The notes under the pieces: model-generated
The model's input: the letters and a program-made list of their open reading frames with translations, nothing else
Told to the model about the DNA's origin: nothing
Database searches by the model: none
In this document: piece by piece, positions 4,301 to 57,861 of the stretch
Numbering within the stretch: the stretch's first letter is position 1
Layout: every line of letters begins with the position of its first letter
NCBI GenBank assembly: GCA_000934665.2
Contig: KZ538153.1
Location: forward strand, 1 to 64,000
Direction of reading: 5' to 3'
DNA: 64,000 bases
DNA from: Catajapyx aquilonaris
Taxonomy: Eukaryota
Program-made: the position numbers and the translations under genes

Positions 4301-5754
4301 GGTTGAGGCCCTGATACTTGTCAACAAACTTTTTTTCGATGATGATAAAAAGTCTAAAAAGGGAGCAAGAGGATGCACTATATTGAGCGCCCCGGATCTG
4401 ACCTCACTCATATCTCGAAAATGGCTGCGAAGTGCGGGTTTTTACCTTCACCAGTGAATTATGTGCATGTGATTTTACCCACTGAGCGATTTTTGTCCAA
4501 ATCGGTTAGTCACACGTCACGGTCTTCCCTTGTGAGACCAATAAACAAAACTGGCCATCACGTATGGTTTACCCTGCGGCCTACGCGATGAAAAAATAAT
4601 ATAAATTGACACCTTTCATTTCCCTCCTCCCACGTAATCCACCCTTACACAGGAAGTTATCACGTAATTTTTATTTTAATGGCAAATGTGTCTTCACACC
4701 ATCGTATTGCAAGGGAGATTAAAATATTATCCCAATCAATCAATGTCATCCAGAGAAATAAAGTCTGGAATGACAACAACAGCAACAAAATGGCCGCGTA
4801 TGAATAGGGGTGTCACGTATCAGTACTATGTAAATGTACCAAAATGGCATAATAAACGTCGGAGAGGATGAAGGACACCTGGTGGCCCACCCCAAGTGGA
4901 ATGTCCCAGTAATAATATTGCATCACATTCACACCTAATTCCAACATTTTGCTTTCATTAAAACTGCATTTACGTATATTATCGTGAATATTTAATAAGC
5001 TCACATTTACCCATTTCAGAGAGAAGAAGCTGAAAAGAACATGGCGAATGGGATCCAGCCAGACATGGACCAAGGGTCGAACTTGCAGGGGAATTCTTGT
5101 CAAGGGACATTTAGTTCCAGGAATGTGTTGAAGAGTCAAAAGAAAATCAATTGCAAAGACAAGCCATTCAGTTGCCAAGTTTGCAATAGAAAGTTGAGAG
5201 ACTCGCATGGTCTGAAGAGACACTCGATGACCCACACGGGAGAGAAGCCATTCAGATGCCAGGTTTGCAAGAAAACCTTTACTCGTTCAGAACATTTGAA
5301 TTCACACATGAGAACTCACACAGGGGAGAAACCTTTCAGTTGCCAGGTTTGCAAGAAAACCTTTACTCGTTCAGAACATTTGAATTCACACATGAGAACT
5401 CACACAGGCGAGAAGCCATTCAGCTGCCAGGTTTGCAAGAAAGCCTTTACTCGTTCAGGAGATTTGAATGAACACATGAGAACTCACACAGGGGAGAAGC
5501 CATTCACCTGCCAGGTTTGCAAGAAAGCCTTTACTCATTCAGGACATTTGAATGAACACATGAGAACTCACACAGGGGAGAAGCCATTCTGCTGCCAGGT
5601 TTGCAAGACAAAATTTACTCGTTCAGGGCATTTGAATGAACACATGAGAACTCACACAGGGGAGAAGCCATTTAGTTGCAAGGTTTGCAGTAAAAGGTTT
5701 GCTCTCTCAAACAATTTGAAATGTCACGAGAGAACACACACAAAAGACAAGTGA
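1343..5754 (+). CDS. C2H2 zinc-finger protein (one N-terminal finger, acidic region, array of 7 Kruppel-type fingers); exons 1343-1735 and 5020-5754
   Basis: CPCCPDKVF..HSTTH in exon 1. The donor CAG|GTGAGA after 1735 and the acceptor tttcAG|AGA at 5019/5020 are both phase 0 and join in frame. Seven CxxC-x12-HxxxH fingers with TGEKPF linkers. The start codon is uncertain. Confidence 0.8.
3265..4085. mobile_element. Foldback/MITE-like element with about 150-bp terminal inverted repeats, in the zinc-finger gene intron
   Basis: 3265-3414 is the near-perfect reverse complement of 3936-4085, and both outer ends are TTAA. A second, inner inverted pair lies at 3415-3477 / 3692-3758. No ORF. Confidence 0.8.
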
Positions 5755-8735: not shown

Positions 8736-10648
8736 TTATAGTCTTGCTTCAGTGCACCATGCTAATAGCGAGACACCTAGTCCAATCAACCACAAAAGAA
8801 AAGCAGCTTGTAATTCCTCAAGTGAAAACTTCATGTCAGCTTAAACCCGCATCGATTCCTCTCTATGTTTCCTTCTAATTTGCGGCAAATATTTCATTAG
8901 GTTGTTATCATTTATCCATTTCCTGGAAAGGTCATATTCAACTATATTTTGTATGTATCTGTTTATATCTGGAGAGGATATGTCTCCTTTGGCAAGAGCG
9001 CCACCGAAGTAACAATATTAAAGAATTCGAGAGGAGCAATGGTCAGTTCGGGTTCTCCTCGAGAAGTCATGAAGGGGGCCATTTTATATTTCAGAGCATC
9101 TGTATTAATTATGCACGCGAAGTCAGACTCTAGAGACTTGTTGAGGCAGGAATTGTAACTGCTTAAAATTTCAATTTTCGAAAAGTTAAATATGCGACTC
9201 TCCAGATCATTTCCCGGCCCCCAAGAAACCATAGCCTTTATCATGAAAGACTCGAGCATATGCACGCCCCATTTGAAATCGGAATGCACTAAATTTTCCA
9301 AACTTTGAGGAATCGTGTCATGAGGTGGGGTAGTTATAAACGAAGTCAGTTTACTCTTGTAACCACACGTAATAACGATGCAAAATATCCAGAACATTGA
9401 CGCGAAAAAGTACGGTGTAGCCTGTGACTTTACAGCGGGTTGTTCTATCATAATTCTCAGTGTGTATGTCACAGACTGCGCAAAAGTGAGTCTTCTGTTT
9501 CTTTGAACACGAATCACCAAACTTGATAACAAAATTGACGCCAGCAAGGCTAACCACACGACCCAATCGTACGGATAAATCAGAACCTTCCACGTACGAA
9601 TAGGCTTAGGTCGTCTGGTAACAAAGGTCATGCCATAGAACACGTAAGGAAAGGACAGGTCAACATATTGCGCTGCTTCGGCTGAATAAAACAGGTAATT
9701 CACAGCTGACACTTTTTGACGTGCAATGGCTGCAACACTTCCTGACAACGTCCCATTTGAATATTTCTGATCAAGTCTACTCACATCGCCCGACGGTATG
9801 TCATCCATAAAATGCATCACAACACTAGCATTAAATTTTTCCTCAAATGTTAGTACCCATCTCTCTAATACTTCCAATCCTTTTTCGCCCACCTTCCGTA
9901 TCTTCTTTCGCAAACTTTCCCCTGTCTGTATTGCATACATCGGAGGAAGCCTGCTCCCCATATGGAACTCACCTCCATTGAAGTTAACACTATCAATCGG
10001 ATACAACACAGCCAGGTCAGTCCCATTGTTGTAAGTTCCCATCTGGACGACCTTTGTTTGGCCATGGTCGCAGTAGAAACAAACCGAATGCAACTCTAGT
10101 CCTTCGTGAGAATAAGCGGCCATCAACTTGAAGCGTATTCCAGACGCAGTGGTTGACATCAGGGCGTCTCCTGGGCTCGCTTCTTCAGGCATGAAATACA
10201 CGAACTTGTCCTGGAGGTTTCGCACCCTAGCGAAGGAGGCCAGATGGACTGTTAAATTGGGCAGGACCTGGTCTGAGCTTGGGATGAGGATGTTCCACGT
10301 GCAGGATGAACCGGGCCAAAATCTGGACCTGAGTTGAGGCGGCATGCTTGTGAACGAGTACAGGTCACTCTGACTGCTAAGTTCAGGGTAGTCGGAATAT
10401 GAGTATGGGAAGTCGGTCATGCGGGTTGTGACCACTGTGCGGTAATTCAGGTGCCAGTACGGTGTCACGTCTAATTTGCCAAAATTAGTGTCCATGGCCA
10501 CTGATAATGAGCAAACAGATTCATCCGCAAGTTTTCTTGCAAAAGACGACATCAATCTGATGTCATCAGAATAACGATGGAAATAAACATCAGTTTCAGC
10601 CGAATTTACCACAAAGGTCAAGTACATCAGGAGGTGAACTTTCGCCAT
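8736..10648 (-). pseudogene. Intronless divergent ionotropic receptor (IR, variant iGluR) with a frameshift near 8970 and an in-frame TAA at 8841-8843
   Basis: ORF 10648-8963 has a signal peptide, S1 (VDLSFPY..MTFVTRRP), pre-M1/M1 (LIYPYDWVVWLALL), M3 (ITCGYKSKLTSFITTP) and S2. The missing end (DINRYIQNIVEYDLSRKW...*..FSLEELQAAFLLWLIGLGVSLLAWCTE) continues in another frame to TAA at 8736-8738. Confidence 0.8.
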
Positions 10649-11120
10649 GTTGAAGTGCTTGCAAGTAACGCACAGTTCTGAACGAAAAATTTGTCGATGT
10701 AAATGTTTTTTTATTGGAATGCAATATTTAGGTGAGGCCCATGTACACAGCCATTATTGTGTTTGCTAAAAAATTACGAGATGCAACATTTATCTGTCTA
10801 TAAGTCACATTATTGAAAGACTTCGGTTCAGTCGCCACGACACTGAGCAGCGCAATATGACTGTCCTTGAATTTATTGCATGAGACCGCATGTTGGTAAA
10901 GGTCAGGATCACAACTATTATCACGAGACACCCCACCTCCCCACCAAACAAAAAAAACATATTTCGACTATTAAGTAACAGAAGGTCATCGATATCAAAA
11001 GTAACCATGGAAGTGCCAAGTGCTAACGTGAGATATAGAAATAGATAAGGTCACCTGAAAGTCAGTCGATTCGGAACAGTGGTTGAAATTAGCACAGGTA
11101 TATAGAAAGAGCTCGCAACA

Positions 11121-12529
11121 ATGAGATTGCTAACTTTAACATTGTTGGTAGTGGCAGGAGTCACGTGCTTTCCGGAGTTAAATTTCGAGCAGAAGAGATG
11201 GAACGAATTCAAGGTATTATGGACTTGTAATAATTACTCATGGTGCATTACTAATTGATTGCAATTTTAGGTAAAGTACAATAAGAAGTACGACTCTGCT
11301 GAAGAGGAACAACTGAGACGTGGCGTTTGGGCTGCGAATATAATGATGATTAACAAGCATAATGAGGAGGCGAATATGGGAAGGCAGAGCTACACCTTGG
11401 CAGAAAACATATTTGCAGACATGGTAAATTCGATATGAATATTGCAAAGTACGTGCAATATTTTATTTGAATAATATTTCAGACACACGACGAGTTTAGA
11501 GAGATGATGGGTCAGAAGCCGGTTCAACAATCAGTGACCAAACACACCCTCAATATGGCCGAAGATCTCCCTGATTCGGTACGTTTTGAAATATCTGACG
11601 AACTGCAAAATGTTTCATTTTGTTCCACTTACTCTTTGACTCATTCTTCCAACATTTAAAATGCAAAACTATAAGTCATACTATTATTCAAATTGGCATT
11701 AAAAATGAAAGGTGAGCTCAATTATTAAAATATTCTAATAGGTTAGTATTTCACGTGGAGAAAATGGCTTAAATAATATTGTAAATTTTGTGTGTGGATT
11801 GCAGGTGGACTGGCGCACAAAAGGAATAGTGAAGAAAGTAATGGACGAAGGTCAGCTAGTGTACGGCTGGTGCTTCTCAACCACGGGCACTATCGAAGGT
11901 CAGCACGCACTGGCCACAGGTCAACTGGTGCCTCTCAGCGAGATCAACCTGGCCGACTGCTGTGACTCATTCAACGTCTACCAGTGTATTTACGACATGG
12001 GAGGGGTTGACACAGAAGATGGATATCCTGACCCAGAGAAGGTGAGTGGCCCACTGCTGTGTGTAATTTCTATTTAAATTTATTTTTAAATTTCAGAACG
12101 GAACATGCAGATTCAATGAAAAAACTATTGGATCTACTATAACCGGATGGGAATCGTTGCCACAAGGAGATGAAGGACAGTTGCAAGCAGCTGTGGCCAA
12201 CATTGGACCAATTTCTGTTTATGTCGATGCCAGTCGATCATCCTTCCAGTTCTACAGGTGATATAATCGATCGATTAATTGTTTGTAATGATTGATGATT
12301 CTCTCACTATTATAGTGGAGGCGTGTACAATGAGCCGGAATGTTCCTCCGAAGATGTGGACTTGTCGATGCTGACCATCGGATACGGTGTGACCTCAGAC
12401 AATGTTCAATACTACATATTGAGAAATCACTGGGGACTCAATTGGGGCGAACAGGGTTACATGAGGATGATTCGCAACGATGGAAACAAATGCGGAATCG
12501 CTACTTTTGCAACATACGTCACTGTATAA
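11121..12529 (+). CDS. Cathepsin-L-like gene 1, non-peptidase homologue (6 exons)
   Basis: Signal peptide MRLLTLTLLVVAGVTC, I29 prodomain, VDWR, GYG, RNHWG..WGEQGYM. Catalytic motif reads MDEGQLVYGW instead of [10 protein letters not shown], and DVDLSM instead of LDHAV. Confidence 0.9.
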
Positions 12530-13469
12530 CTGCGAAAAGCCCAGAAAATAAAAGAATTGAATCGACTATTTTAAAAACATTGAGTTGTTTCATTAAAATG
12601 TCTTTTTTTGCCATTAGCCTATACGAGATGGTGACTATGTGGAAAAATAGCATAAGAATGATATACTAGGAAATTCACCACTGTCCACTGATAATAATTA
12701 ACCGAATTTGCAAAAAAAATACTATAGGCCTAGTGGAATTGCAATATTATGCAATATACATCTCTCTGTACACAATTCTGGCCTCATTTGCTAATCGTGC
12801 AGGGAACTCAACACACCTTTGGCACAACGTAATCATGTGGGGCAGACAATCCACACTCACAAATACCTGGATCAGTCAATAATAATATCTCATCATCATC
12901 CACCTCAAAAACCTAAACAAATATGCACATGCTGGATGACTTATATCATGAAGTGTATTGCTGATCGCATGACTGCCATTGGCGCAATCACTCTCTGTAC
13001 ATATGAGCTACCTACAGTTCATTACAAATAATGTAGCAGTAAATAATGACCAAAATTTTAATTATTTACATAATTATTTGTTGTGCCAATCAAATTAAGG
13101 ACAAGTTTCTGCAGGATGAAAATTATTGAAAGTCAAACATGTCATCGTAATGGTTGCTTGGGTAAACAATCCACTATTTCTCTCCTCCCGAATAATTGTT
13201 GTTGTGAACCATTCTGTAGATGAATGTGATAATAACACTTCAGTTTTGTAAACAATGGTACTCGACACACCAATTTTTTTTCAAAAGCCTCCAGGCTAAA
13301 AATAGAATCAGGTAAAAGTCGCATGAAACCGGTAGGACAGGTGAATAACCTGATATCCGAGTCCAATAGATCATATATATTTTTTTTGGATGAAAGAGAC
13401 TCAATATAAGGAGGTGTCTTACCAACAATCCATCGCACTTGTTCCTGTCCTCAAGGCACAACATCAACC

Positions 13470-15029
<1,560 letters not shown>

Positions 15030-18311: not shown

Positions 18312-19438
18312 ATGGGTGCTGCTTTATGCAAGCAAGACCAATCGAGAGAAAATGTCGATGGAAAGGACAATCCTACATTACCGGTACGCTGGTGTTTCAT
18401 AATAATACGGATAAACCAGCAGAGCATCAGTTATGTTGCAATGCCATTTAGTCTCCGAAAACATTCAATTAGCAATAAATTATAGACTAAACTACCTAAT
18501 ATGTATCGGACACAACCTACCACACTTCCATCTCCTAGCCAACTGCCTGATGCATCTTATAATAATAATGTATTACATTGAAGTTGCATTGGGGTACACA
18601 CGTTTAATTTTTAAAAAAACAATATAAACTTCTAGTTACCAGAGTTTGTCTGAATCATTATGTTTTTACGGCAATCACTGTCACCATTAATGACATGATG
18701 GCTTCTGCAGGAGAACCGGTTCACGTGGATACCATACTTTCCACCAGATTACCACCACGTACCCATGTTGTGCCCGGGGATTCCGGCACCACCATTCTCA
18801 TCCAAATGCGTCGTGGGTTCGGACCAGTTCAAAGACATTAGTCTCGCAGACTTCAAAGGCAAATTTCTGGTCCTAGTCTTCTACCAGTACGACTTGTAAG
18901 TAATTGACAATAATTTTACGTTTAATAGTTCCTGTTGTATCAATAAAAATTAGGGAAAAAATATCATAATGTGAGTGTTTTTTTAAACAAAATAAAGAAT
19001 TGAATTTTGTATCACTTAAATTCCAGCTTGCCCATATGTTCGTCCGATCTGGACGCGTTCACAAAGAACTTGAAGCGTTTTCGCGAGATCGGTTGCGAAG
19101 TAGTCTGCTGCTCGACAGACAGCCTGGACAACCACAACATGTGGACGTCGTTGACGTTCTCGTTCAGGACGCTTCCGATCATGGCGGACGCGAACGGACG
19201 CATCAGCAGGGACTACGGTGTGTACGACGAAGAGAGAGGTGTTGCCCAGACCAGCCTCTTCATCATCGACAAGGAACAGGTATTGCGGTACGTCAGCGTG
19301 TGCGACGAGAGAGTACAGAGGGACGTGGACAGCGTGTTGCGGTTGGTCAAGACGCTCAAGGAACTGTGCAAGGACATTGTTGGAGAAGGACAGGAGATTC
19401 TTCGTACACCGCCGTACATGGACTGCATCAATGGATAA
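18312..19438 (+). CDS. Divergent peroxiredoxin-like protein A (AhpC/Prx1 fold); exons 18312-18383, 18711-18895, 19027-19438
   Basis: APPF..FKDISLADFKGKFLVLVFYQYDF|LPICSSDL, IGCEVVCCSTDS, ISRDYGVYDEERG, LFIID, RDVDSVLRLV. It shares the phase-2 intron after DF with the canonical Prx. N-terminus MGAALCK. Confidence 0.85.
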
Positions 19439-19882
19439 AGCGCAGTACAATGCGAGACAAAACTAACTGGATGATGACATCGGCACAGGTATTGTTTATA
19501 AACTTGGCATGCATAAAGATTATTTACGATTTCTTTTTACAAAAGTGGTTTGTGTCTAACGGCCAATACGACTCTTTTAACGCCACTTTTAATTACCCGT
19601 ACCTACAAAGGCACGAAGCGTCGTACGCTGGAGTGATAAAATATGCGCACACGATGCATGTTTTCTGAATAAAAGCAGCTCTTGAAGTGTCGATTTCTAG
19701 CTATTGTTTCATCATTGTTGAAGGGAAATACTGTATGTTTGTATGGGGCTTGGTTCCATATATATCTTTGTGGTGGCATTTCCATGGAGGCCTGTTGACT
19801 ACTAATTGATAATCATCAAACTGTTGATCGAATTTTATATGTGTTTTCCATGTCAGCTTGCATGAACAATAAGCCTACCACG

Positions 19883-20873
19883 ATGGGTCTAAATTTGTGC
19901 AGAGAGCAGGACAGGAGGAAGTCCAGGAAGAACAGTGCGACGGAATTGGTTGTTGTACTGTACATTGAAGCATTACAAGTGAACTGTATGATCTTTGTCG
20001 TTACTATAATTCCAGGCACTGCATTCTTATCATGCACACTCACAGTCAGTGAGAAGCGTCATTCCTCGTGGTCTACAAATAGGTGTGACAGCACCCGATT
20101 TCAGATGCAGTGCTTTGGTGGACGGTCAGTTCAAAGAAGTTGGCCTCAAAGATTACGCTGGAAAGTCGTTGGTTCTTCTCTTCTACCCACAGGACTTGTG
20201 AGCACACTAATTCAATAGTATGCAACTCTTGGAAACAATAAATTAGCAAAAGTGTAACATTTTCCTGTCTGTAATATACCATAGAAAACCCTGGCCTCGG
20301 TCGCATTTTTCTATAGTGTCGGCTATACTGTTCAAACACAACAATTTCCACTTTCCAATTTTTGGGGAACATTAATGATATCTACAATATTCTAACAGCA
20401 ATACATCTCGACCTGAAGCTAGTCCTCAAGAAATTCGTAAGTTTTCCGAGAGGATATCAGAATTCCGTACGCTGTCCTGCGAAGTGGTGGCCTGCTCGAC
20501 TGACAGTGTGTACGTCCACTCGACGTGTGTTGCACTGCCCACGGATCAAGGAGGATTAGGTTTGAAGTTCAACATTCCTCTTCTGTCAGATAAGAACGGA
20601 GAGGTGAGCAGGTCCTACAGGGTGTACGAAAAGGATAGCGGAAGGTCCTTTAGAAGCGTGTTCCTCATCGACGAGAAGCAGGTCGTTCGACACAAGGCAG
20701 TGCACGACATGTTGCTTCCTCTGGACGTGGACGATACTCTCAGAGTCCTGATGGCCATACGTACCATCGACGAAAAGGAAGACAAAAGTACTGCCTGTCA
20801 CAAAAAAAAGTTTCGGCCAGACACGTCCGGGCTGGACAATATACGTTTGGCCGAAACTTTTTTTAGTAACTGA
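19883..20873 (+). CDS. Divergent peroxiredoxin-like protein B lacking the peroxidatic Cys; exons 19883-19948, 20016-20197, 20399-20873 (possible extra exon 20943-21193)
   Basis: [82 protein letters not shown]-terminus MGLNLCR; an in-frame upstream ATG exists at 19862. Confidence 0.85.
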
Positions 20874-23800
20874 TTCCTAAAATTTATTTAATTTATTTAT
20901 TGCAGTATATTTTTATAACTATCGAGCACCTCTCTGTTACAGGTTGTATTAGCAGCTTCTGGCAGTCAAGGTCCTCAAAGAAGGAGAGGAGGAAGACCAT
21001 GATACTCGAGATCGAGACGGACATGTCGCAATCGCAAATGGATTTGATACGTTCGCTGCAAGAAGCAGGAAATCCGCCCAAGGTCCGAGTCATAACGCCA
21101 GACAAAGAATCTCTGGACCTGTTCACAGAGGACATAAATTCGGACAACGATAATAAAGGACACGACACAAAGAGGAGGGCCAGCAGAATATAAAGAAACA
21201 CACCGTGTGAGGAATATTGTCAATTGAAAAAAAAATGACTCAATTAAATCAGATGATGCTCATTACCTATTAAGTAATATTGCGTGTAAAATTCTCCCGA
21301 GATAAAGCCAAACCATCATTTATAAGTGACTATATTATTCAAGTGCCCTCTCATGATTTTTTTGTGTCCCACTGGAATTGCACACACGCAATGCGGGACA
21401 GCAGTCACGATTCGCTGCCTGTCACTCAAAAGGCTCGTCATCCATTAAAAGGAGCGGTCACGTTATATGCGCTAATGATAATTTGACCACAACAATGTGA
21501 GCATTCAAAAATAATGTAATCAATGTAATATAATATTTAAAAATAATGTACCACAGGTAATCGTAATGGGGCAATAAATATGTGAATGATAAAATAACTG
21601 CCATTCACATTAAAAAACAATGAAGCGTCCAGTAATAAACAAGCCTATTTGTGTCAAAAAGCTTTACCTTTAAGCTGTTTGTGACAATAGGTCATTAGAG
21701 CCTTATCGTTTTACATGTAAGGAGATACGTACAGACATGAAGTTGACACTTCCATTTCGAACAACAAGAGTGTTTGAGCCTCAGGTTTCTAATATAATTA
21801 GCTTCTCACGTGATGCTCGTTATCATTATACTTAAATTCATGCTTTCGTAAAAATACGTCGTGAAATCGTTTTACACGCTGGACATTGTTTTGTTTGACG
21901 TCAATAAAGGGACGAAATAGCTAACCTTATACGAAACTTAAGTACTGTACAGTAGGCCTCTCCAGTACTACACAAAAAAAATGGCGCAATCGACTATTAT
22001 GCGGTACTTCATATTCCCTTTTTACTACTGTCCATTACTATGTGCACGCGTAATATTTTGCAAACAAAATAATGTTGCCTGCCTACTGACATATGTGCGC
22101 CATTATTAGGGCCATCACAATAAAATTAATGTAAAAGCTCTTCATATCCAATGCCATATACAAATCACCATCATTTGCACACGAATATCTGCGCTCAAAT
22201 TATGAATATTACCACTACTTTTATTTATAGCTCGGTCGTACCTTGTTGGAATTTTTCAAGTATTTCATGTCCACTATTTATGTGCGTATGTGAAGCTCCC
22301 GTTTTATAGGCCATTTTTTTCATCAAGCCCAACCCCATGTTTTTCGCTTTCCGTTTTGTCCCTCTTTTGTCTGCAACCCTAGGGTCTATCCAAACGGCCT
22401 TGTAAAATAACGGTGCCCAACATGGGGTGCGCGTCACCAAAAATATACGGTATACCCCCCAAATTGATTTCCGGCCATGAAAAAAAAAAGCAAGGTCGCC
22501 ACGTGCTCCACTGTTAAATATTATATGAGCTCACATGTGCCAGCTTGCGATTTATTGGCAATTAAAATTTGCGCACACCTTTTTGACTATACATGCTTGC
22601 CAAGAGTTCCCATGATTCCCTTTGTGTAGAGACGAGGGGGGGTAGGTGAGGCCAGCTGTCGACCAGAGACTGAAACGACGAGCAGCAGGCCTCAGTACCC
22701 CGACAGCCATTGAGGAGTGCAGCTGTGGGAAAAAAGAAGTTCAAGGTCTGGCCATTTTCATCCAAACTGTTTGGTCGATATTCTTATAGTCAAGGAGAAA
22801 CATACGCTCTTGGTATATAAAGTGCAGTCCAGGTAAACGCTTTGATAAGTGTGGATGTAGGTACAGTACAGTGCATTGTGTTGTGTAAATGGGTTGTGCT
22901 GGTGGTTGTCTGACTGTGGTACCGTACGAACATACCAACGTCAAATGTGCTCAGGATCCTTTGAACATGTCGGACACATTCACAGACCTTTTGATAGACA
23001 CAGTGTCGGCGTCACAAGAGGTGCGTTATCCGGTTCGTTAAAAAATATGGGGGGGTACATTTTATGTGAAATCGATGCACTTTATGTAGGCTATTGGCAC
23101 GGGTTATGCAAAAAAAGAAGAGGTGGATTATTATTGACTTCCTGTATGCGCCCTAGTGAATAACCCCCTCCTCTTTGTGGCCTTGCACACACGTAAAGGC
23201 ACAGCCAGCAATAATTAACCGTTGACCTTGCTATGATTTTCGTTACATACACCGCCGAATTCGCATGTTTTTATCCGTAATTTGCTACGACGTCAACAAA
23301 AAAAAATTGCAATGTTCATACTCAGTTTTTTTTAAATAAATTACATTATTTTGTCCCAAAAATTATTCTGCAATATGCGTCTTTTATGCTAACAACAATT
23401 AGTTTAAAAAAAGATGTGGAATTTTTCAGATGGGAAGGACCTTAAAATATTTTTGACCTGTGACCCAGAAAACCATATTGGAACCTTTTCATATGCAGAA
23501 CTCTCAATAGATGGCGCACCAGTCGTGGATTTATTTTTTGGCGGATATTTTTTGGCAACTATGCGGACGACGCGACGGATTTGAATCACTAATATGGAAC
23601 AACTATCAAATTTTTAATCCATAAAAATTCGTGTCACTCTTAACTCATGACCCTTTCGGTCTGTTTTGACCTCTGGGGACGCTTATTGTGCGCTATGTAA
23701 CCGTAAAATGACAGTGCCGCAACCTAACGAACGTTATTGTGGCGAGCGTCACGCACAGTGAGTTTGAATGACCAGTGCGCAGCCTCCTCGGCGCATCTAG

Positions 23801-23824
23801 TACGTCACGTGGTCGCGAGCCAAT
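23801..23824 (+). promoter_or_regulatory. Candidate promoter of the canonical peroxiredoxin: ACGTCACGTGG (CRE half-site/E-box) plus CCAAT
   Basis: GC-richer patch tacgtcacgtggtcgcgagccaat. It is followed by a probable 5'-UTR donor aag|gtgac near 23929 and an acceptor ttccgacag at 24443, just before the ATG. Confidence 0.4.
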
Positions 23825-24464
23825 CAGTGGGCGTGATTGCAATTAGTTCGTAATTTGGACACTAGAGGCGCGGACAAGTCAGCTCTATCGGGAGATTCCG
23901 GTACTAATTAGACACATTTTAAATATAAGGTGACATTTTTTGGGGGGCTATTAATTATTAAGTGGTGGTTAATTATGGGAGCACGGCTGTGTTCAATTGA
24001 AGAGCCTTGGCCACATACTTTGGGGCATGCTTTGGTTCAAGGAGATCGTGGCCAATTGCTTGATATACTCCAGAGAAGGTTTGAGGTCAGAAGAAAATAA
24101 GGATCAGCTTAATTGGCTAATTAATTATTATATTAAACTATGCTAGTTTTTTTTCTTCAATTAACTTGCAACCACATTGCAGCAATGTTGCAATGATCAA
24201 AATTACCAGTACCGTAATAATACGGTGCGGTTTAATGCGCAGAATAAAAACATGCGATGTGATGTAATCGAAGCCTCAAAAATAATTACGCAACAGAGGG
24301 AAGTTATCAGCCGGCCCAAAAATGTGTAGCGGATCGCTACTCGCAACTTATGTTGAATGCGATTAGTGTAGGTCGTACACTTCCTGGTAATGTGGGTAAT
24401 AAAATGTGATCGCAGGAAAATAACGCACTTTCTCTTCCGACAGATACCTACAACTCCAGCCAAG

Positions 24465-25805
24465 ATGAGTCTCCAGCCCTTGCTCCTGCCGCAGATGCCC
24501 GCGCCTCACTTCAAGACCATGGCGCTCGTTAACAGCGAATTCAAGGAGGTCTCGCTTAGCGACTACAAGGGGAAATACCTAGTCCTGTTTTTCTATCCGC
24601 TTGATTTGTAAGTATATTACGTACAATTAAATATTACAAGTGATCCGCTATTGAGAATGGTTAGCCTTGAACTGATTGGGTGTCGTTATCAGAACCGGAT
24701 GTCCCATGTTGACAATCCACTTGATATGCGGCCAATATACCGGATGCATTCAAAGCTTCTTTCCTGGCGTTACGTAACGGCTTAAAGGGAATGTTCACTG
24801 TTCATTGCATTCATTGTGACTGCGACTAGCGTCAATGAGCGCAACATCTTTTTCCCCAGCACGTTTGTGTGTCCGACCGAGATCATCGCCTTCTCCGACC
24901 GTGTCGAAGAGTTCCGAAATATCGGATGTGAGGTGGTGGCCTGCTCGACTGATAGCCATTTCAGTCATCTGGCCTGGTGCAACACCACACGAAAGAATGG
25001 CGGCCTGGGCCAGATGCAGATCCCGCTTCTGGCCGACAAGACCGGTCGGATCAGCAGGGCCTATGGGGTGTACCACGAGGAGGAAGGGATTGCTTTCCGC
25101 GGCCTGTTCATTATTGATCCCAAGCAGATCCTGAGGCAGATCACCATCAATGATCTACCAGTTGGAAGGGATATAGACGAGACCCTGCGACTGGTTCAGG
25201 CCTTCCAGTTCACCGACAAGCATGGGGAAGGTGAGCTTTACCGTGAAGTTGATTAATCTGCCTTGTACAGCCCCGTAACTTGTTAATACCGGTACGAGTC
25301 GACTTACACGTAACGCATCGTTAGTAGGCAAGATATTAAGCATAATTAAAGTAAATCAGTTAGGATGTTAACTAGATGCTTCACTGGAAATCATAATCTA
25401 ACTACTCGATTAAAGGAAAAGTCTAGCTGGACATGCTGAAACCATGAAACAAACAAAATGGAAAGTGATGTACGATTTTTGTCGGACAATGATCGGTACT
25501 TACCTCAATTTGGATGCGCCGTTAAATGATACCGTCCCAGCAACTAGCATTGAGTGCTAGTAAAACCTGAAATTAAAAAGCAGAGCTTGATATAAAATGA
25601 TGAAGTAACATACCGGTATGCAGCTCTACAATGAAAATGATGCGTGATTGTAACTTCAAGTAGGATTTTTTTAAGGACTCGTCTGGATGTGATAGTAATA
25701 GCGAAATTATATTTTCCAGTGTGCCCGGCTGGATGGAAGCCTGGAAAGAAGACGATAAAAGCAGATCCGAAGGAGAGCCAGGAATACTTCAAGACCATTG
25801 AGTAA
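24465..25805 (+). CDS. Prx1: Typical 2-Cys peroxiredoxin (Prx1/2, thioredoxin peroxidase); exons 24465-24607, 24860-25230, 25720-25805
   Basis: [46 protein letters not shown] and the C-terminal YF motif are all intact. Confidence 0.97.
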
Positions 25806-26844: not shown

Positions 26845-28407
<1,563 letters not shown>

Positions 28408-38327: not shown

Positions 38328-39810
38328 ATGCGTGTTTTGATTCTGGGTCTTCTTGTGGCCTCGGTGACTTGCGTCTCCGTTCGCCAGGCCGAAGTTGGAA
38401 ACTCAGTCTACGACGACGAATGGGAGACGTACAAGGTATGATCTCTCAACACTATAGGTTAAATATCCCTGTGCTACTAACATTATTATTAAGATTAAGC
38501 ATGAGAAGAAGTACGAGACTCTGGATGAAGAGATGAAGCGTCGTCTGATCTGGGAGGACAACATGGCACTGATCAACAAGCACAACCTGGAAGCAGCCCG
38601 TGGACAGTACTCCTTCACCATGGGTCAAGGGCCATTCACTGACCTGGTCAGTACTTGAAACAAGCATATCTTAACATATGTCTCATGACCGCACATTACT
38701 TTCAGACCAACGAGGAATTCCGTGCCAAGACCACATGTGTCGATGGAGCAAATGTGCCGAAGGTCGTCGTCAGTACCGTACAGACTTACAAAGTCCGGGC
38801 TCCAGACAGCGTAAGTCAATTTATAACCTCAATTCGGATTGATGGTGCACAGCATAAAGCTACATGTATCATTGCAGATTGACTGGAGGGACAGTGGTGT
38901 TGTGAGCAGCGTTAAGAACCAGGAACAATGCGGGTCATGCTGGGCCTTCGCAACAGCCGCAACCATCGAGAGCCGTCAAGCCATCGAACAAAAACAAGGA
39001 CCTTATGACCTCAGGTTGGTCACTAATAACTTGCTTGGTTTTAATCAATAAGCTAATATTTACCGGACACATTTCAGCCCTCAGCAGATTGTTGATTGCG
39101 ACACCATCAACAAAGGTTGTGGAGGAGGATGACCATACTTGGCCATGAAATACTACGTGTCTCCAAATGGCTTACAGACCTGGAACAGTTACCCATACGC
39201 CTATGTGGTTAGTGATTTTGCTAACCGTCAAACACCCAACAGCCTATATAATATAGAGCCAGACACTACCGGATATAAATTCCGATTGTAATAAATTTCC
39301 AGCAACAAACCTGCGCCTACTCGGCCTCCCAAGTTGTGGCCAACATTTCCAACATCGGAATCATCCAAGGAGACGAAGACCATATGAAGGAAGAGGTCGG
39401 AAACAATGGACCCATCGCCGTTGTGTTGAACGCCGAACCTTCCACCTTCCAACATTACAAGTAAGAACCCAATACATTAATTAAGTAATTATAATAATTA
39501 TTAAAGCAGTTACTCTTATCAGCTATTGGTTGCTGTAGCGTAGCTTTTTTTCTGAATAATTTCGCTGTTATTGAGATGATTCTAATTACAATAATGCAGG
39601 TCTGGAGTGTATGACGATGCTAGTTGCTCGACTCCACCCAACCATGCTGTAACTGCTGTGGGTTATGGCAACGAAGGTGGAAAGGACTACTGGCTCCTCA
39701 AGAACTCCTGGGGAGCAACCTGGGGAGCACAGGGTTACATCATGGTTGCTCGTGGTGTCAACAGGTGTGGCGTCAACACCCAGTCAGCCTATTGCAACGC
39801 TATCAATTAA
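38328..39810 (+). pseudogene. Cathepsin L-like 8, recent duplicate of gene 7 with an in-frame TGA at 39130-39132
   Basis: GGA GGA GGA TGA CCA, where gene 7 has GGA GGA GGA TGG CCA. The TATA box present upstream of gene 7 is absent here. Confidence 0.85.
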
Positions 39811-45587: not shown

Positions 45588-47021
45588 ATGCGTCTGCTTA
45601 TATTGTCCGCTTTGGTGGTGGCCGCAACGGCCTTAGATTTTGCTTCTCTCAACATCGGACACCGAGTGTACGATGACCAATGGGAGACATACAAGGTTTG
45701 TCTTGTTAAAAGAAGTTTTGGCCAAACATAACATTTCGAAATTCGCAGATCAAGCTGGACAAGAAGTACTCGACTGTTCCCGAGGAACTTAAGCGTCGTT
45801 TGATCTACGAGGACAACCTGGCCTACATCAACAAGCACAACTTGGAGGAAGCCCAGGGAAAACACAAGTTCGTCCTCGGAGAAGGTCCCTTCACAGACAT
45901 GGTATGATTCTGAACCAATTGAAACTTCAGAATTTACACGACACGTATTATTTACAGACTAATGAAGAGTTCCGCACAGCAACTCGGTGCTTGCTGCCAT
46001 CCAAGATGCCAAGACCATCGTCGCACACGACACCACGAAAGTCCACAAAGGCAGTCCCTGACAGCGTAAGTGCAATTTGTCCGAAGTATGAATTGTTGTA
46101 ATTGGAGCTATAAAATTGCAGATTGACTGGAGAGATTATGGTGTGGTGAACCCTCCCCAATTCCAAAAGTGCGATGACTGCTGGTCCTTCTCAAGTGTTG
46201 CAGTCACAGAGAGTCGATATGCCATCAAGAACAAGGTTCTCTACAAGCTTAGGTCAGTTCTTCCAGAATTCAAATATATTGCATCAACACGCATTTGGAA
46301 AATTTTTAATGCAAAAGGTTACATATTTTATGTGCATTTTCTTAAACTAATTATTTCAGCGAGCAGCAACTGGTTGACTGTGATGCCGACAATAACGGCT
46401 GTAATCCATCGTACATCGACAGAGCTTACAACTACATTGTGCAAACTGGACTCGAAACTGAAGATTCGTACCCATATGCACAAGGCGTTGTACGTATATT
46501 TTTATGGCGAAGCAGTTTGGAATTGTTTATTTATTTTTTTAAATCCCTTTCAACCTCCAGCAAAATACCTGCACTTTCGATGGCAGCAAAGTGGTTGCAA
46601 GGGTTTCAAGCTACAACGCTGTTGGTCCTGATGTCGAGTCCATGAGGACTGAGATTGGTACAAACGGTCCAGTCACTTTCACCATAATGTCAGCAGCCGC
46701 TGCCTTCCAGCACTACACGTAAGAACATTAATGGTGTTCAATTGAACTGTCTGCCACAATTTTTTTTTTTGCTTGTGTATGTATTTTGACATGGCTTATT
46801 GAACGCTTTGCAGGGGTGGAATTCTGGATGATAGCACTTGCGGAACAGCAACTGATCATGCCATTACTGCCATCGGCTACGGATCTGATGGCGGTGAAGA
46901 TTATTGGATCCTGAAGAACTCCTGGGGAACTGACTGGGGAGAACAGGGATTCATGAGGATCGTAAGGGGAAAGAACATGTGCGGCGTTGAACAAGTGGCC
47001 GCTTTCTTCGACATTGCCTAA
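45588..47021 (+). CDS. Cathepsin L-like 10 (divergent QKCDDCW subfamily)
   Basis: [38 protein letters not shown]; 7 open exons. Confidence 0.92.
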
Positions 47022-47751
47022 CTCATTTCCTTGCACAATAATACTGGCAATAAAATGATCTAAACCTATTCCACTGTGTATGTTTTTTTTTTTGCTTTAC
47101 CTCTGTCAGTGATTAAAATTCAAGCATTGAATGTAAATCAATTCTGCAAGTACGGTATAAAAGGCAACACCGTACTTGTCATTTTTAAAACAACTAACTC
47201 AACAGTAAATGCTGTTTTTTTTTATCCATAATAATCGTTTCAATTACAAAGCATACGATTTCACGAGTGTCAGAAATAGTACTTTCTTATGCACAGTCTT
47301 ATTCCTACCATTTGTCAATTTTGGCAGAAAATTAGAAAGTACGTTGATGTATTTTTTTATTTGCAATTTGGCAGAAATTTTTACTGTGGGTCTTAGTTAA
47401 GGTCATTTGTGAATTAAAGCGACTTTTCAATAAAAATAATTAAGCCCATATTTTCAGGTGTTACAATGTTGATTGTATTTTGTACAAACACATCTTAAGT
47501 ATTTGAGAACCTCTGTCACATTTTTAAAAAAAAGCCACAATCATTTCGTACTTATGATAAAAGGAAGTCTCCTTACACCGCACTTGACTCTTGCACTGTA
47601 AGGTGGTGTTGTGAAGGATCTTCTAGGTTACAAAGATAATTACATAAAGGGTGATTATCTGCAGATAATATTCAAGGGCACTATCACAGTATATATATAA
47701 TTATATAGAGAAAATAAGTGCAGTACAGTGATAGTACCTGTTGCTATAAAG

Positions 47752-49164
47752 ATGCGTCTGCTTATATTGTCCGCTTTGGTGGTGGCCGCAACGGCCTTAG
47801 ATTTTGCTTCTCTCAACATCGGACACCGCGTGTACGATGACAAATGGGAGACATACAAGGTTTGTCTTGTTAAAAGGAGTTTTGGCCGAACTTAACTTTT
47901 CAATGTTCGCAGACCAAGCTGGACAAGAAGTACTCGACTGTTGCTGAGGAACTTAAGCGTCGTTTGATCTACGAGGACAACATGGCCTACATCAACAAGC
48001 ACAACTTGGAAGCAGCCCAGGGGAAACACTCCTTCACTCTCGGAGAAGGCCCCTTCACAGACATGGTACGATTCTGATTTCTGAACCATACATAAATTCA
48101 GAAAATTCATGACATTATTATTTTACAGACTAATGAAGAGTATCGCAAAGCAACTCGGTGCTTGTTGCCATCTGAGATTCCAAAACCATCGCACACGACA
48201 CCACGAAAGTCCACAAAGGCAGTCCCTGACAGCGTAGGTGCACTCCAATTGATGAAACGTTTTATTTAAAGAATTGTGTAATTGTAAGATATACACATAA
48301 TTATTTCAGATTGACTGGAGAGATCATGGTGTGGTTAACCCTCCTCAATTACAAAAGTGCAATGACTGCTGGGCCTTCTCAAGTGTTGCAGTCACCGAGA
48401 GTCGATATGCCATTAAATCTCAGTACCTCTACAAACTTAGGTAAGAGTCGGTCTGAATTCATTCGAAAAGAAATCTCTAATCAATATTGCAATTATGTTG
48501 TCGTGCAATTTGGCCTAAGTAATTACTAATTATTTCAGCGAGCAGCAACTAGTTGACTGTGATGCTGACAATAATGGCTGTGATCCATCGTACATCAACC
48601 GAGCTTACAACTATATTGTGCAAAGCGGACTCGAATCCGAAGATTCATACCCATATGGACAAGGAGTTGTAAGTACATTTTTTTAGCAGTCATACCGCAA
48701 TTACATAATATATTTTAAAAATTTTCTGTATCCACCTTCAGCAAAATACTTGCACATTTGACAGCAGCAAAGTTATTGCCAACGTAGGAGACTACAATTA
48801 TGTTGGTCCTGACCCAGAGGCCATGAGGGTCGAGATTGGTACAAACGGCCCAGTCACTTTTGGCATAATGTCTGCAGCAGCAGCCTTCCAGCACTACGAG
48901 TAAGTCCCATTCAATTGTCGCAAATTAAAAAGCAATTACTGAGACCTTACTTTCAGTGGCGGAATTTTGGATGACAGCACTTGCGGAACAGCAACTGATC
49001 ATGCCATCACTGCCATTGGCTATGGAAGTGATAATGGTGAAGATTATTGGATTCTGAAGAACTCCTGGGGAACTGACTGGGGAGAACAAGGATTCATGAG
49101 GATCGCAAGAGGAAAGAACATGTGCGGTGTTGAGCAAGGAGCCGCTTTTTACGACATTGCTTAA
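47752..49164 (+). CDS. Cathepsin L-like 11 (divergent QKCNDCW subfamily)
   Basis: [38 protein letters not shown]; close paralog of gene 10. Confidence 0.92.
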
Positions 49165-49787
49165 CTCATTTTTGTAACTTTACAATAAAAAAATGATACG
49201 TTTGTTACTGTACCTCCAAAAATGCTTTCATTTTTCGTACTACTTATACAATAAGCATACCGTACTTCAAATGCATGCCCATCATTGATTTATACACCTG
49301 GCAATGAGAGCTTGACACGACCCTGATCTTTCTCTATTGACTCCAAACGGTGCATGACAAACAGAAAAATGGACAAGGCTGCTATGCAACAAAAAAAATT
49401 GATCGTGAAGCCTATCGTCCCTTATAGTCTCTCATTCGAAGACTCATCGAAAGGGTGAGCACAAGCCAAGTAAGTAATATTCCGATTGTGTAAAAATATT
49501 AGAAAAAATATTTGCACATTTCAAATCCGACCAAAGTTTGTCAACATGTAATTTCATAATTGACCGTAACATAGCAAATTGTTTCCTAAGATAAAATCAA
49601 TGATAAAATTGCATTAGTATAATTATTGTACATTATTATATCCGTGAGTATGAGACATAAACAGTTGTCACCATGAGTAGCTTAATAGAATTGATTAAAA
49701 TCTTTTTTATGATAAGCACGCACACACTTTGCCTAATTTATGTCAATTTCGCGTGCAGATTTTTTTTTCTTCAGCAAGAGACAAACC

Positions 49788-51172
49788 ATGACCTGCTCAA
49801 CACTGCCGTTCATACTGGCCATTTTTGGAGAGTTATCCACTGCCATACACGTGCTAACAGATCAAGATTGGGAAAATTACAAGGTAATCATATAGTGCCA
49901 ACATTATTGTTACATTTACTAAATTTGGTCTCCATCATATTACTGAAGATGAAATACGAGAAGTTTTACGAGAGTTTGAGCGAAGAAATGAAGCGACGTA
50001 AGATATGGGAAGACAACATGCATCTCATTGAGGAATACAACGATGAAGCTTCCAAAGGAGAATATTCGTCAACACAAGGAGACGGTCCATTTACAGACAT
50101 GGTAAGACTAGTATGAACACAACAGGTACAGTATGTAATATTACACAATATACAGACAGACGAAGAGTTTGAGTCTCAAGGATGCTGCGTCGAACCTGAA
50201 GACCATATTGACATACCTGTACACGACAACTATCGAATCCCTAGGTCTGGAAAATCAAAAAAGAATCTGCCTGATAGGGTGAGTTTACGATAATGTATTG
50301 TTCATCGCACATGCGACTAAATGTTCATTTTTTCAGGTTGATTGGAGAGATCAAGGTGTTTTGACCCCTGCCAAATATCAAGGTCCTTGTGGTTGTTGCT
50401 GGTCTTTTGCAACGGTCGGAGCAGTTGAGAGTCGCCATGCAATTAAGACAGGAATTCTCTATGAGTTGAGGTAAACAAATCAGAAGAAATTATTGTTCTG
50501 TTAGTGTGCAAATAAATTATTGCAGATTTCGTTGAATAAATGAATACATATTTTACAGTGAACAGCAGATTTTGGATTGCGACAGTAAAAATAACGGATG
50601 TGGACCTGGCAACATCAAATATGCATACCAGTATATCTTTAGAAACGGACTTCAGCCGAACGAAACATATCCGTACATAGCTGAAGTAAGTCATCTCATG
50701 ATTTTTTTTTTAAACAATATACTGATTGTGCAATTATTATTCAGCAAGAAGCATGCCAATACGACAGAGAACAAGTGGTGGTTCAAATCACAGGGTTCAA
50801 ACTAATTCCACCCAAAAAACCACTGGCAATGATGAAAGAAATTGCATTGAACGGACCAGTTTCAGCAGCCATCAATTCTCGATCACGACACATCAAAAAT
50901 TACAGGTACACTTTTTTTTGGATAACTTTTATGGCTAACAACCTTGAGGACAAAATTGCAGATCAGGTGTCGTGGATGACCCCAAATGCAAGCCGAAGGT
51001 GAACCATTTCGTGCTGATTGTTGGTTACGGAAGCACGAGGAAAGGAAAGGAATATTGGATTGTGAAGAACTCTTGGGGAGAAGGACATGGAGAGCAAGGC
51101 TACATGAAGATTGTCAGGAAGAAGAACATGTGTGGGATTGAACGTCATATCGCATTTCCTCGCCTTCCGTAG
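49788..51172 (+). CDS. Cathepsin L-like 12 (divergent; basic mature domain, acidic prodomain)
   Basis: AKYQGPCGCCWSFA, GCGPGN, VNHFVLIVGYG, KNSWGEGHGEQGY; 7 exons. Confidence 0.9.
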
Positions 51173-52357
51173 AAAATGTTTAAAAAATTTTTGGTGGAAT
51201 TTCTTGCATTTAATAATTGGCCATGAAAACACAGCATTTAAACTGCACGATACAAATCAAGAAGTCAAAATAAATTAAGACAAAATTTTAGAATTATTAA
51301 AGATGTTAGTAAGTGTAGCCCTAAGCGTAGTAATTATTCGTGAAAATATTCACCAATATATTGCACGGTTGAATTAATTTAATAAGGAATAAATTAATGA
51401 TGATATTAATCTATGCAATACGATATCGCAAATATCGCAGTCTGAATGGACAGGGTATTGGACATTACAGGGTATGTCAATTTTACACTATTTTCTATTG
51501 CTATATTTTTCATCACTACTGATTCATGATTGCTGTGTGACACGTTATCAGGACTCTTGGACAGCATATAGTCATCTTTAGTAGAGCTTACATGACTTAA
51601 ATGTTAATCAACATGTCGCCGCACTTTTGCGAATATTGTATTGCACTTTAGTAGACCGCTGAATTCTGTACAATACTTGTGAATAAAATATACAAAATAT
51701 TTAATATCGTGATAGTATTTTAAAAACTGGCATTTGCCCCATTTTGATCAGGTGGTGCTCTACAATTCATTATTGTAGTTATCATCGTTTGGCCTCCAGC
51801 AAACCGTGACGACAACTTGCAGAAAACAATATTTGGGCATAGTCCACCTTTCATTTCAGTAAACACTCATCATTGAGAGTTGATGTAACCCCGAAAGTTA
51901 TCAGAAGGAGAAAAAAGTCAAGTAGGACATTTCTATATCAGTGTCCATGAGTGAAATTTATGATAGTCATGACATATCAATTTTTAAACTATTAGGCACT
52001 AAATAAGGACAATATCAAATCATGTGATTTCCGATAGTAAATGAGCAAGGAATCGACTAAAATCAGTGGCGTTTAAATGACTTCTCGCCATATTTTTTTC
52101 GCATATTTTTCCTGCCCAATATATAATCATCCACTCAAAACCAGCAGATATAAAACGACCTTCACCTGGACGATATGTCCTCCCCAATTTGGCAGGTGTG
52201 TATCGCGTTATATAAACAAAAAGGTTGAGCTTTTACCCTCAACCCAAATCTGTTTTCCAAAAAAAGATAAGAGGATCCATCAGTATAAAAAAGAAATCAA
52301 TCGCGCTATTCACGCATCAGAAGAGTCCCGAAGGTAACGCAAAACAAAAGGTGAAAC

Positions 52358-55077: not shown

Positions 55078-55661
55078 GGAGTTGGAAACAGCAACAGAGA
55101 TTGTTCATTGAAAAATGTGTTGATTCAAACTTTGTCAAATAAAAATACATGTTATGCACTACAAATTTTTCCTGTTTGTATTCCATATCCCTGGATCGCC
55201 TCAAAAGAATGCATAGCCTGTATTAAATTAAAATAAACGAAAATGACAATGTGACGCCTTTAACATTTTTTTTTTCTAACCAGAGCACACGGGATGGACG
55301 TTCTGCTTCAGGTGACTTCAGGGAAGAAATGCCCGTCTTTTGTCCTTCCGCACACTGCCCATAGAGAGTCAGGACATGAATGTTGCACCATCAGGAAATC
55401 ATTCTATGGTGACATGGAGTTATAACTGGAATTTCCAACTTTATATCTCTTCCTTATTCCTTGAAATATTCCGATGAAATTTGTGGGAAGGGATCAAGCC
55501 ACGAACATCTCTCCTGATACGTAAGTCTCGCCCTTTGCCCACAAACGTTTTATCGGTGGTCACCATCAATGTCACCACTATTTATGCAGTACTGTACGCC
55601 CTATAGATGGTATTGAGGAGAAAGGAGTCGTCTGATTGAGTCAAGTGCAGCATCCTCCGAG

Positions 55662-56355
55662 ATGATGGCCCACATCAGCAGTTTTGGTTTCTATTTGTTG
55701 GCCACCCTTCTGTTCATGTCAGGGGTCAATCATTCCCTGGCCCTGAAAGATATTGCAGTCGAAAATATTCCCAGTGCTGTTGACACAAAGGAACCCAGTG
55801 AGGAAGACAGACTGGAACTGGCCATACAATATTTGATGAGAGCTGTGGTGGATGGATTTGCTCGAACAGGTAATAATAATTGTCAAGTCTTGTTTTCAAG
55901 TCCTTTGAATATGTTCTTCCTTTTTTTCATCATGCAGCACGAGAAGTGAGAGAAATCAAGGATGAAGTGAAATTATTAGATGAGGAAATCACTTCATTAC
56001 GAGAGGGAAAGGTATCATTAAGAGAGGATACGACATCCTTAAAAGAGGATATGACATCCTTAAATGGAGGAATGAAATCATTAGAAGACGAAATGAGGTA
56101 AGTGAGCAACCCCGTGTCAACCCAACTGCTTTTATTGCGACCAATAGTCAAGGGTAAAATAATCGTGATGACATCATACTCATCCTTTCCAGACATGTCC
56201 GATTATGAAGCGATGTGTGTTCGGGCAATTCGAAATTATTAAGAAGGTGGTTTAATTGAACATGTGCAATATTCATTCTAGCCATGAAGTGGACAGAATC
56301 ACCACATCGTTGACGGATATTATGACCAAAGCAAATGTCTGCTGGACACATTCTG
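55662..56355 (+). CDS. Signal peptide plus coiled-coil exons of unknown family (55662-55869, 55938-56097, 56193-56246 with an internal TGA, 56282-56355); probable 5' partner of cathepsin 14
   Basis: Hydrophobic N-terminus (FYLLATLLFMSGVNHSLA) and heptads (VREIKDEVKLLDEEITSLRE..TSLKEDMTSL). Splice phases 1-2-2-1 are mutually consistent. Confidence 0.65.
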
Positions 56356-56477
56356 GTAAGAAAACATGTCATTGCTTACTGTGGTAACTGACATGACTGA
56401 TATTTAAATCGAAGATATCTTAAATTATTACCTTGGAAAGAGTGTCCGATGTGATTTTTTTTCTCTCCTTGCCTTAG

Positions 56478-57861
<1,384 letters not shown>

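Follow-up and report, generated by a model that had tools for sequence, protein, structure and literature searches.

The gene at 11121–12529 on the + strand of the window (the whole 64,000-nucleotide stretch of Catajapyx aquilonaris contig KZ538153.1 analysed here) is a C1A non-peptidase homologue, a known kind of protein: its catalytic residues are replaced, it is transcribed, and its mature domain is under purifying selection. Residues are given in papain numbering, placed by alignment. That the gene encodes a pseudoenzyme is very probable. The role that we consider somewhat probable is that of a non-catalytic papain-fold binding protein, which, judging from its residues and by analogy, may hold its partner through the rebuilt surface or through the side of the retained Trp177 and Trp181. 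The MEROPS criterion for a non-peptidase homologue is replacement of the catalytic residues (cited in PMC13520124), and inactivity itself is predicted from the sequence. New in this analysis are the rebuilding of the cleft, the covariation of Cys57 with Cys74, the Glu19–His176 pair and the loss of an intron.

Dead members of the papain family are common, but a function is known for few of them. In insects most such proteins retain the cleft and have been interpreted as decoys for inhibitors. The present gene changes nearly every cleft residue yet keeps the scaffold, and the same genome holds an independent dead group that keeps the cleft. With these two dead types side by side, a decoy role and a new binding surface are directly testable against each other.

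Gene structure and transcription

The six exons join into an open frame of 954 nt (317 amino acids and a stop codon), and the five introns are all GT..AG and 55–226 nt long. All five are skipped in a spliced contig (see below), which bears out the sequence-only reading of the exons as open and spliceable. Exon 1 (11121–11213; this and all features of the gene are on the + strand) contains the start codon, a hydrophobic signal-like segment (approximately residues 1–16) and the start of the propeptide; the signal peptide claimed earlier is thus retained as a prediction, read from the hydrophobic N-terminus. Exon 2 (11271–11423) encodes the I29 propeptide (PF08246, 57.3 bits, cut-off 24.4), confirming that the prodomain is retained, and its motif columns E-R-W-N-I-N and A-N-F-D preserve the ERFNIN-type and GNFD-type motifs. 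Exon 3 (11483–11578) carries the end of the propeptide, from which the N-G-F segment is lost, and the beginning of the mature domain at ~11567. Exon 4 (11805–12041) encodes the N-terminal half of the papain domain and is a fusion of two exons of the neighbouring genes: a phase-2 intron found in all 14 neighbours and in 29 of the 36 gene models of this genome is absent from its site at 11938–11939. The five introns that are present match the neighbours' introns in position and phase. Exon 5 (12097–12257) includes Cys95, a single N-glycosylation sequon, Ala133Tyr (S2 pocket) and Tyr146, and exon 6 (12316–12529) includes Tyr151, Cys153, His159Leu, Asn175, Ser176His, Trp177, Trp181, Cys200 and the stop codon. 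Pfam matches to I29 (exon 2) and Peptidase_C1 (PF00112; exons 4 and 6) are all above cut-off, and the nearest solved-structure matches are cathepsins L. A putative polyadenylation signal, AATAAA, is read from the sequence at 12547–12552.

Expression data had been named as a check by the sequence-only reading. Five sequencing runs contain the stretch, none of them recorded as RNA, and three were compared with it. Run X5, from a different sample and study, contains one 1013-nt contig spanning 11077–12543 (contig ends rather than mapped transcript ends) that skips exactly the five predicted introns, with 0 differing letters and 0 gaps. X5 is read as RNA from this spliced contig alone, and one contig in one run documents that a second sample contains a spliced transcript carrying these substitutions; it does not speak to level or tissue. 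Neither of two DNA runs of the possible source sample shows the exon-exon joints, and neither has a differing letter anywhere in the coding sequence; the changes in the gene are therefore not assembly errors. X5 has no contig over the next paralogue, which is not used as evidence.

Changes in the catalytic site and cleft

Cys25, His159 and Gln19 of active cathepsin L are not kept and read Gly, Leu and Glu in this gene. All three codons reported from sequence alone are confirmed, with GGC at the nucleophile position (11865–11867), TTG in place of the catalytic base (12362–12364) and GAA at the oxyanion residue (11847–11849). The nucleophile change closes a run of four substitutions at 11856–11867 (Cys22Leu, Gly23Val, Ser24Tyr and Cys25Gly). 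Gly23Val, Ser24Tyr, Ala133Tyr, Ser176His and the lost intron extend the list given earlier, and by count seven site codons together show at least 12 base differences from their nearest ancestral codons. Asn175, Trp177 and Trp181 are kept.

The earlier observation that Cys22 and about nine residues of the GCxGG loop are lost also stands: Cys22 is replaced by Leu, and in the alignment 8 residues lead from Cys56 to position 74 as against 17 in the next paralogue, a deletion of nine. Compared with solved cathepsins L the same loop is 11 residues shorter. The segment at 11958–11987 contains Cys56, a new Cys57, the shortened loop from which Cys63 and Gly65–Gly66 are gone, and a new Cys74. The second Cys of the DCCD motif is either 57 or a retained Cys63 depending on where the gap is placed: one alignment puts it at 63 and another at 57, and a single deletion makes it 57. 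The three extra cysteines described before (in GWCF, DCCD and YQCI) are present. Active cathepsin L has three disulfides (22–63, 56–95 and 153–200), and in this gene the set is incomplete, with Cys22 absent and Cys56, 95, 153 and 200 present.

Residue 133 of the S2 pocket is Tyr, and is Ala, Gly or Leu in the nine paralogues compared (S2 positions defined after PMC4336737, where the Gly-Gly pair is called crucial to substrate binding). The aromatic residues of propeptide docking (56p, 63p, 71p, Tyr146 and Tyr151; PMC4842899) are all retained. The N-G-F segment of the propeptide, described in the same source as entering the cleft, is missing here and varies in active paralogues too. A Gly25 mutant of Fasciola procathepsin L1 shows no autoprocessing (PMC4842899). 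Taken from its residues, the cleft is best described as rebuilt rather than merely switched off.

Paired replacements in the scaffold

Cys74 occurs in eight of 284 distinct domain segments (retrieved proteins plus gene models, a set gathered with the gene and its look-alikes and hence enriched for Cys57/Cys74), and all eight also have Cys57. Among the 272 segments without Cys57 it is found in none, and Cys57 occurs alone in four. The eight proteins include this gene, a fly enzyme, two other active enzymes, a mite protein and a horseshoe crab protein, and because the holders are so diverse the pair is likely to have had several origins. Four of the eight also lack Cys22; three keep Cys25, so the pair is no mark of inactivity. 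From this covariation and by analogy, we infer that a Cys57–Cys74 bond may replace Cys22–Cys63, leaving the new Cys27 (11871–11873) probably unpaired, and the recurrence of the Cys57/Cys74 pair suggests a repeatable way of stabilising the papain L domain once the Cys22–Cys63 loop is given up. An alignment-based fold of exon 4 alone (mean pLDDT 65) shows three helices arranged as expected; the first of them begins at Gly25, the third contains Cys74, and the best Foldseek match of the model is a cathepsin L (E 1.7e-3).

The fly protein (Drosophila obscura XP_022217019.2, P0052) keeps Cys25 and His159, has lost Cys22 and the GCxGG loop, and has gained Cys57/Cys74; the same scaffold change is thus seen in an apparently active enzyme, as judged from its residues, of a tractable genus.

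In papain the Ser176 hydroxyl bonds the amide oxygen of Gln19 (PMC4625562). None of 203 motif matches, drawn from 319 retrieved proteins, has His at 176, and the His codon at 12428–12430 is a candidate partner of Glu19; on the simple reading, suggested by covariation and the papain contact, Gln19Glu and Ser176His would form a compensating pair.

Selection and constraint

Selection was assessed on a 12-gene codon alignment of 311 columns with our own branch model. On the branch of this gene omega=1 is rejected with F3x4 frequencies (2ΔlnL 69) and with empirical codon frequencies (2ΔlnL 23; profile omega below ~0.1), and it is rejected for the mature domain alone (2ΔlnL 22). It is not rejected for the propeptide alone (omega 0.52, p 0.66, 84 codons). 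The omega values are model-dependent because synonymous sites are saturated on nearly all branches, and the branch omega also covers time before inactivation. In neutral simulations (substitutions only) 2.8% of 4000 runs preserved both the frame and the splice sites at a divergence of 0.05 and none of 4000 did so at ≥0.15, and the divergence fitted under omega=1 is 0.38–0.47; the intact frame thus bounds any neutral time to ~0.05 substitutions per site. The mature domain is under purifying selection, and neutral decay is rejected.

Among columns that are ≥90% fixed in 28 active paralogues, the gene retains 11/11 in the propeptide, 28/35 outside the site in the mature domain and 4/9 in the site (3/9 if Cys57 is not counted as Cys63). 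Non-site retention, counted in-sample, is 29–35 in the active paralogues and 27 in a stop-bearing copy (L055); the gene lies below every active paralogue and near L055, and constraint is therefore somewhat loosened. The selected pseudoenzyme postulated by the sequence-only reading is upheld by the spliced transcript in a second sample, the rejection of omega=1, and a frame that is open despite deep divergence. The suggested orthologue and dN/dS check came out in two parts: omega=1 is rejected on the branch among 12 genes, and the exon 4 scan described below gave no close orthologue.

The cathepsin array and its paralogues

Fifteen cathepsin-L-like genes, all on the + strand, occupy 11121–60406, and this gene comes first among them. 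The 14 neighbours (13470–60406) all keep Cys25 and His159, and one has an in-frame stop. The earlier statement that the gene heads the array is correct in so far as it is first in the window; no meaning of this position is shown, the window beginning at the first base of the contig. Genome searches found a single copy and no close paralogue, with a next best identity of 57% (exons 4 and 6). In all, 47 anchors, taken from the window and from 20 fetched stretches, were modelled and 36 models kept, after dropping ten that were partial, frameshifted or low-scoring and one duplicate. Cys25 is missing from seven of the 36, namely the gene studied here, one copy with a stop, and five models on contig C3626 that have Ser or Ala instead. 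The gene studied here is the only model without His159 and the only one without Cys22, and in-frame stops are present in two.

The five models on C3626 (L051–L053) are intact and keep His159, Cys22, Cys63 and Gly65–Gly66 alongside Ser or Ala at position 25. Their inactivity has a separate origin, as the tree nests them with active paralogues of this genome.

Several of the window's paralogues have features of their own. The copy at 38328–39792 is complete except for an in-frame TGA directly after the GCGGG loop and is likely a young pseudogene. Ten paralogues at 26845–57855, together with L061, have a Cys at or beside the Gly of the propeptide N-G-F segment, and in these 11 that Cys might lock the zymogen by pairing with the catalytic Cys in a disulfide. 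Five at 45588–57855 keep Cys25 and His159 and have Pro at Gly65 (three also with Ser at Gly66), and in four of them position 23 is Asp or Asn and position 24 is Asp; their specificity is possibly changed. The model at 56159–57855 lacks a clean start or signal exon.

Relatives and phylogeny

A scan of exon 4 against 50%-identity representatives gave 3191 hits, the best 150 with ≤61% identity and no close orthologue among these representatives. Of 179 aligned stretches among the best 150 matches, 31 lack Cys25 or His159 (a few being alignment slips), so dead C1A proteins are common among sequences similar to this gene. Homologues with some of its marks are Tyrophagus KAH9408793.1, Limulus XP_022236887.1, Homarus XP_042216942.1, P0059, P0071 and P0018.

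With all columns (55 rows, LG+G4) the gene groups with P0059 and the mite protein at 78/32 and with Limulus at 72/88; the Limulus grouping vanished once trait columns were dropped. In that reduced tree (35 rows, mixture model) the gene is sister to P0059 and the mite-type P0159 at 68/91. A single origin of all dead sequences is rejected (p-AU 0.0009). Neither a five-row Cys57/Cys74 clade (the gene, P0059, P0159/P0014, P0151 and P0071; p-AU 0.19) nor an origin of the gene within the genome's own seven-exon group (p-AU 0.26) is rejected. The mite-type gene shares one of the five intron positions, the one found in 33 of the 36 models. The intron positions speak for a local origin and convergence; the tree would also allow an older link, and long branches may attract. 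The genome's canonical cathepsin L clusters with enzymes of cockroach, beetle and horseshoe crab (100/96), which points to an arthropod host.

A bolder reading places the gene in an old, unrecognised arthropod lineage of cleft-rebuilt pseudo-cathepsins with Tyrophagus, and perhaps the horseshoe crab, in which Cys57–Cys74 replaces Cys22–Cys63 and, in this member, Glu19–His176 beside Gly25 makes a new ligand or metal site. We regard it as rather unlikely; if true, it would mean that the cathepsin L fold has a conserved role other than proteolysis, and it would offer a naturally occurring guide to the conversion of a papain cleft to another use.

Further searches added little to this picture. A word-index search of exon 4 against longer proteins gave 38 candidates, none significant. 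A profile search with the look-alikes returned mostly active cathepsins L, nine of 123 new sequences being motif-flagged as dead, DCC-bearing or unparsed, and a region search with P0059 gave 19 matches and no new Cys57/Cys74 protein. A degenerate DNA pattern gave ten matches in metagenome contigs, one of them a cathepsin (the mite-type gene L080) and nine without a cathepsin frame. The ESM Atlas returned generic C1A clusters only, and a single-sequence fold of P0159 (pLDDT 35) was too low to inform.

Two coral-like sequences (P0018 and P0191) lack Cys25 and Cys22, have a different extra Cys pair in the same loop, and nest with an active Oculina enzyme. P0159 is nearly identical to the Tyrophagus protein and shares one 90% cluster with P0274 (XP_017489049.1, labelled Rhagoletis zephyria), which is possibly mite DNA in a fly assembly.

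Comparison with known inactive C1A proteins

By analogy the gene would function as the known dead C1A proteins do, and it belongs to no named family among them. The scabies mite SMIPP-Cs resemble it in a C1A fold (predicted in our case), replaced catalytic residues, an altered disulfide pattern and expression beside active paralogues. SMIPP-Cc, -Cd and -Ce have His to Leu and Gln to Glu changes and no predicted propeptide (PMC5956821), and SMIPP-Cs bind calcium and associate with forming fibrin (PMC7815109). They differ in that they lack a propeptide, are nearest to mite group 1 allergens, are multicopy and act on the host, whereas this cathepsin-L-like gene has retained its I29 propeptide and occurs in a single copy, a contrast drawn from published descriptions of the SMIPP-Cs.

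The weevil (Sphenophorus levis) protein Sl-CathL-CS is, like this gene, an insect cathepsin-L paralogue without a catalytic Cys that is expressed and inactive (predicted to be so in our case). It binds and competes for a sugarcane cystatin, and one Ser-to-Cys change restores its activity (PMC8583781). Its lone Ser-for-Cys substitution in a restorable, cystatin-binding cleft contrasts with Gly25, Leu159 and the rebuilt cleft here. An intact cleft of the Sl-CathL-CS type is not found in this gene, in which His159, Cys22, Gly23, Gly65–Gly66 and Ala133 are also changed. The Tenebrio and Tribolium proteins TmL29, TmL30 and XP_970773 are predicted to be inactive and belong to tandem expansions, and TmL30 has Gln19Glu (PMC4336737). 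They keep His159, Asn175, Gly23 and Gly65, of which our gene keeps Asn175 only (PMC4336737). In Hordeum, pseudopeptidases are expressed beside active copies (PMC13520124).

Like this gene, the undescribed homologues Tyrophagus KAH9408793.1 (P0014), Limulus XP_022236887.1 (P0020), P0059, P0071 and P0052 have the DCC motif and Cys74. P0014 also shares Cys22Leu, a short loop and the lack of His159, and P0020 and P0052 lack Cys22. Position 25 in these five is Ser, Val or Cys as against Gly in our gene.

Among more distant cases, testins are inactive C1A paralogues, and silicatein combines Ser25 with intact His159 and Asn175, unlike this gene with its Gly25 and Leu159. SPE31 and soybean P34 presumably carry Gly at the catalytic Cys position. 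Like this gene with its predicted papain fold, both (SPE31 as PDB 2b1m/2b1n) lack the catalytic cysteine of that fold, and they are plant seed proteins of separate origin. The excerpt of PMC12354366 does not state the substitution in P34. Literature searches, none of them aimed at a disulfide swap, found no paper on this gene, and the supplementary alignments of PMC4336737 and PMC8583781 may hold similar variants.

Proposed role and alternatives

In the reading that we prefer, a cathepsin-L paralogue would have lost catalysis long ago and been kept as a secreted or lysosome-routed binding protein. The product would enter the secretory path and fold on its own propeptide, and would stay a proform unless another protease cuts it, because self-processing should be impossible. 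The non-primed half of the cleft (S1–S2) would be closed by Val23, Tyr24, Tyr133 and the deletion of the Gly65–Gly66 loop, while Cys57–Cys74 would take the place of the Cys22–Cys63 bond and Glu19–His176 that of the interdomain Gln19–Ser176 link. From a closed cleft and a re-stabilised scaffold it would follow that the partner belongs neither to the normal substrates nor to the ordinary inhibitors of the cleft; in acting by binding, the protein would resemble the SMIPP-Cs. Among the three roles put forward from sequence alone, a binding protein fits best, a cystatin decoy fits less well, and a prodomain-delivered inhibitor is possible.

A decoy would soak up cystatins or other cleft-binding inhibitors and thereby shield the active cathepsins of the array. 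Such a role has been demonstrated for Sl-CathL-CS (PMC8583781), and our gene keeps Trp177 and Trp181 and adjoins 14 genes with intact catalytic residues. However, the tested decoy has an intact cleft, as its restoration by a single Ser-to-Cys change indicates (PMC8583781), whereas Gly23, Cys22, the Gly65–Gly66 loop and Ala133 are all changed here; the five other Cys25-less genes of this genome, with His159, Cys22, Cys63 and Gly65–Gly66, would suit the role better, and we hold it to be unlikely for this one. It is also quite unlikely, in our judgement, that the dead domain acts as chaperone and vehicle for the I29 propeptide, which another protease would free to inhibit neighbouring cathepsins in the manner of crammer or CTLA-2. 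All 11 fixed propeptide columns and the ERFNIN-type and GNFD-type motifs are kept, but a cathepsin propeptide is required for folding in any case. Free propeptide-like inhibitors do occur in insects (PMC3551606). Against this, the codon test places the selection signal in the mature domain and not in the propeptide, for which omega=1 was not rejected, and the cleft-entering N-G-F segment (PMC4842899) is gone, although active paralogues also vary there; both points weaken the idea, which moreover leaves the rebuilt disulfide and Ser176His unexplained.

It is very unlikely that the protein is a different enzyme or a metal binder rather than inert, with Glu19 and His176 making up a site for metal binding or water activation next to the cavity that Cys25Gly leaves. 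The two residues touch in papain (PMC4625562), His176 is absent from all 203 comparable motifs, and silicateins are a cathepsin-L fold turned to other chemistry; yet a salt bridge in which each change offsets the other is the simpler account of the pair, Gln19Glu is seen repeatedly in dead homologues, and a third ligand was not identified. A recently released duplicate, still transcribed and simply not yet struck by a stop, would account for the lowest fixed non-site retention among the intact models (28/35) and for a propeptide omega not different from 1, in a family that does contain pseudogenes (in-frame stops in 2/36 models). But ~0.05 substitutions per site would not accommodate 12 or more base changes across seven site codons together with a 27-base deletion, omega=1 is rejected, and the second sample is identical, which makes decay highly improbable. 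Least credible of all is a thiol protease with Cys27 as a new nucleophile and His176 as base, an idea suggested by a Cys two residues from position 25 and a His one residue from Asn175: Trp26 and Phe28 fix the register, in the exon 4 model the central helix begins where Gly25 stands, residue 27 points into the helix interior in enzymes with a papain fold, and the substrate pockets are predicted to be occluded.

Surroundings of the gene

A lower-copy repeat lies just downstream of the gene (12627–12660), and the fourth intron of the next paralogue contains a short high-copy repeat (14231–14310) with a summed contig depth in the thousands; a repeat search over 9000–14500 gave short two-copy matches only. 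Three peroxiredoxin-like frames interrupt the array at 18970–25253, the third with a Pfam AhpC-TSA match. Upstream and head to head with the gene is an uninterrupted 596-codon frame (8966–10753, - strand) that is ionotropic-receptor-like, with a weak ligand-gated ion channel match below cut-off. Further out, the array is flanked by a C2H2 zinc-finger array (4999–5751, + strand) and a cytochrome P450 gene (61172–63340, + strand).
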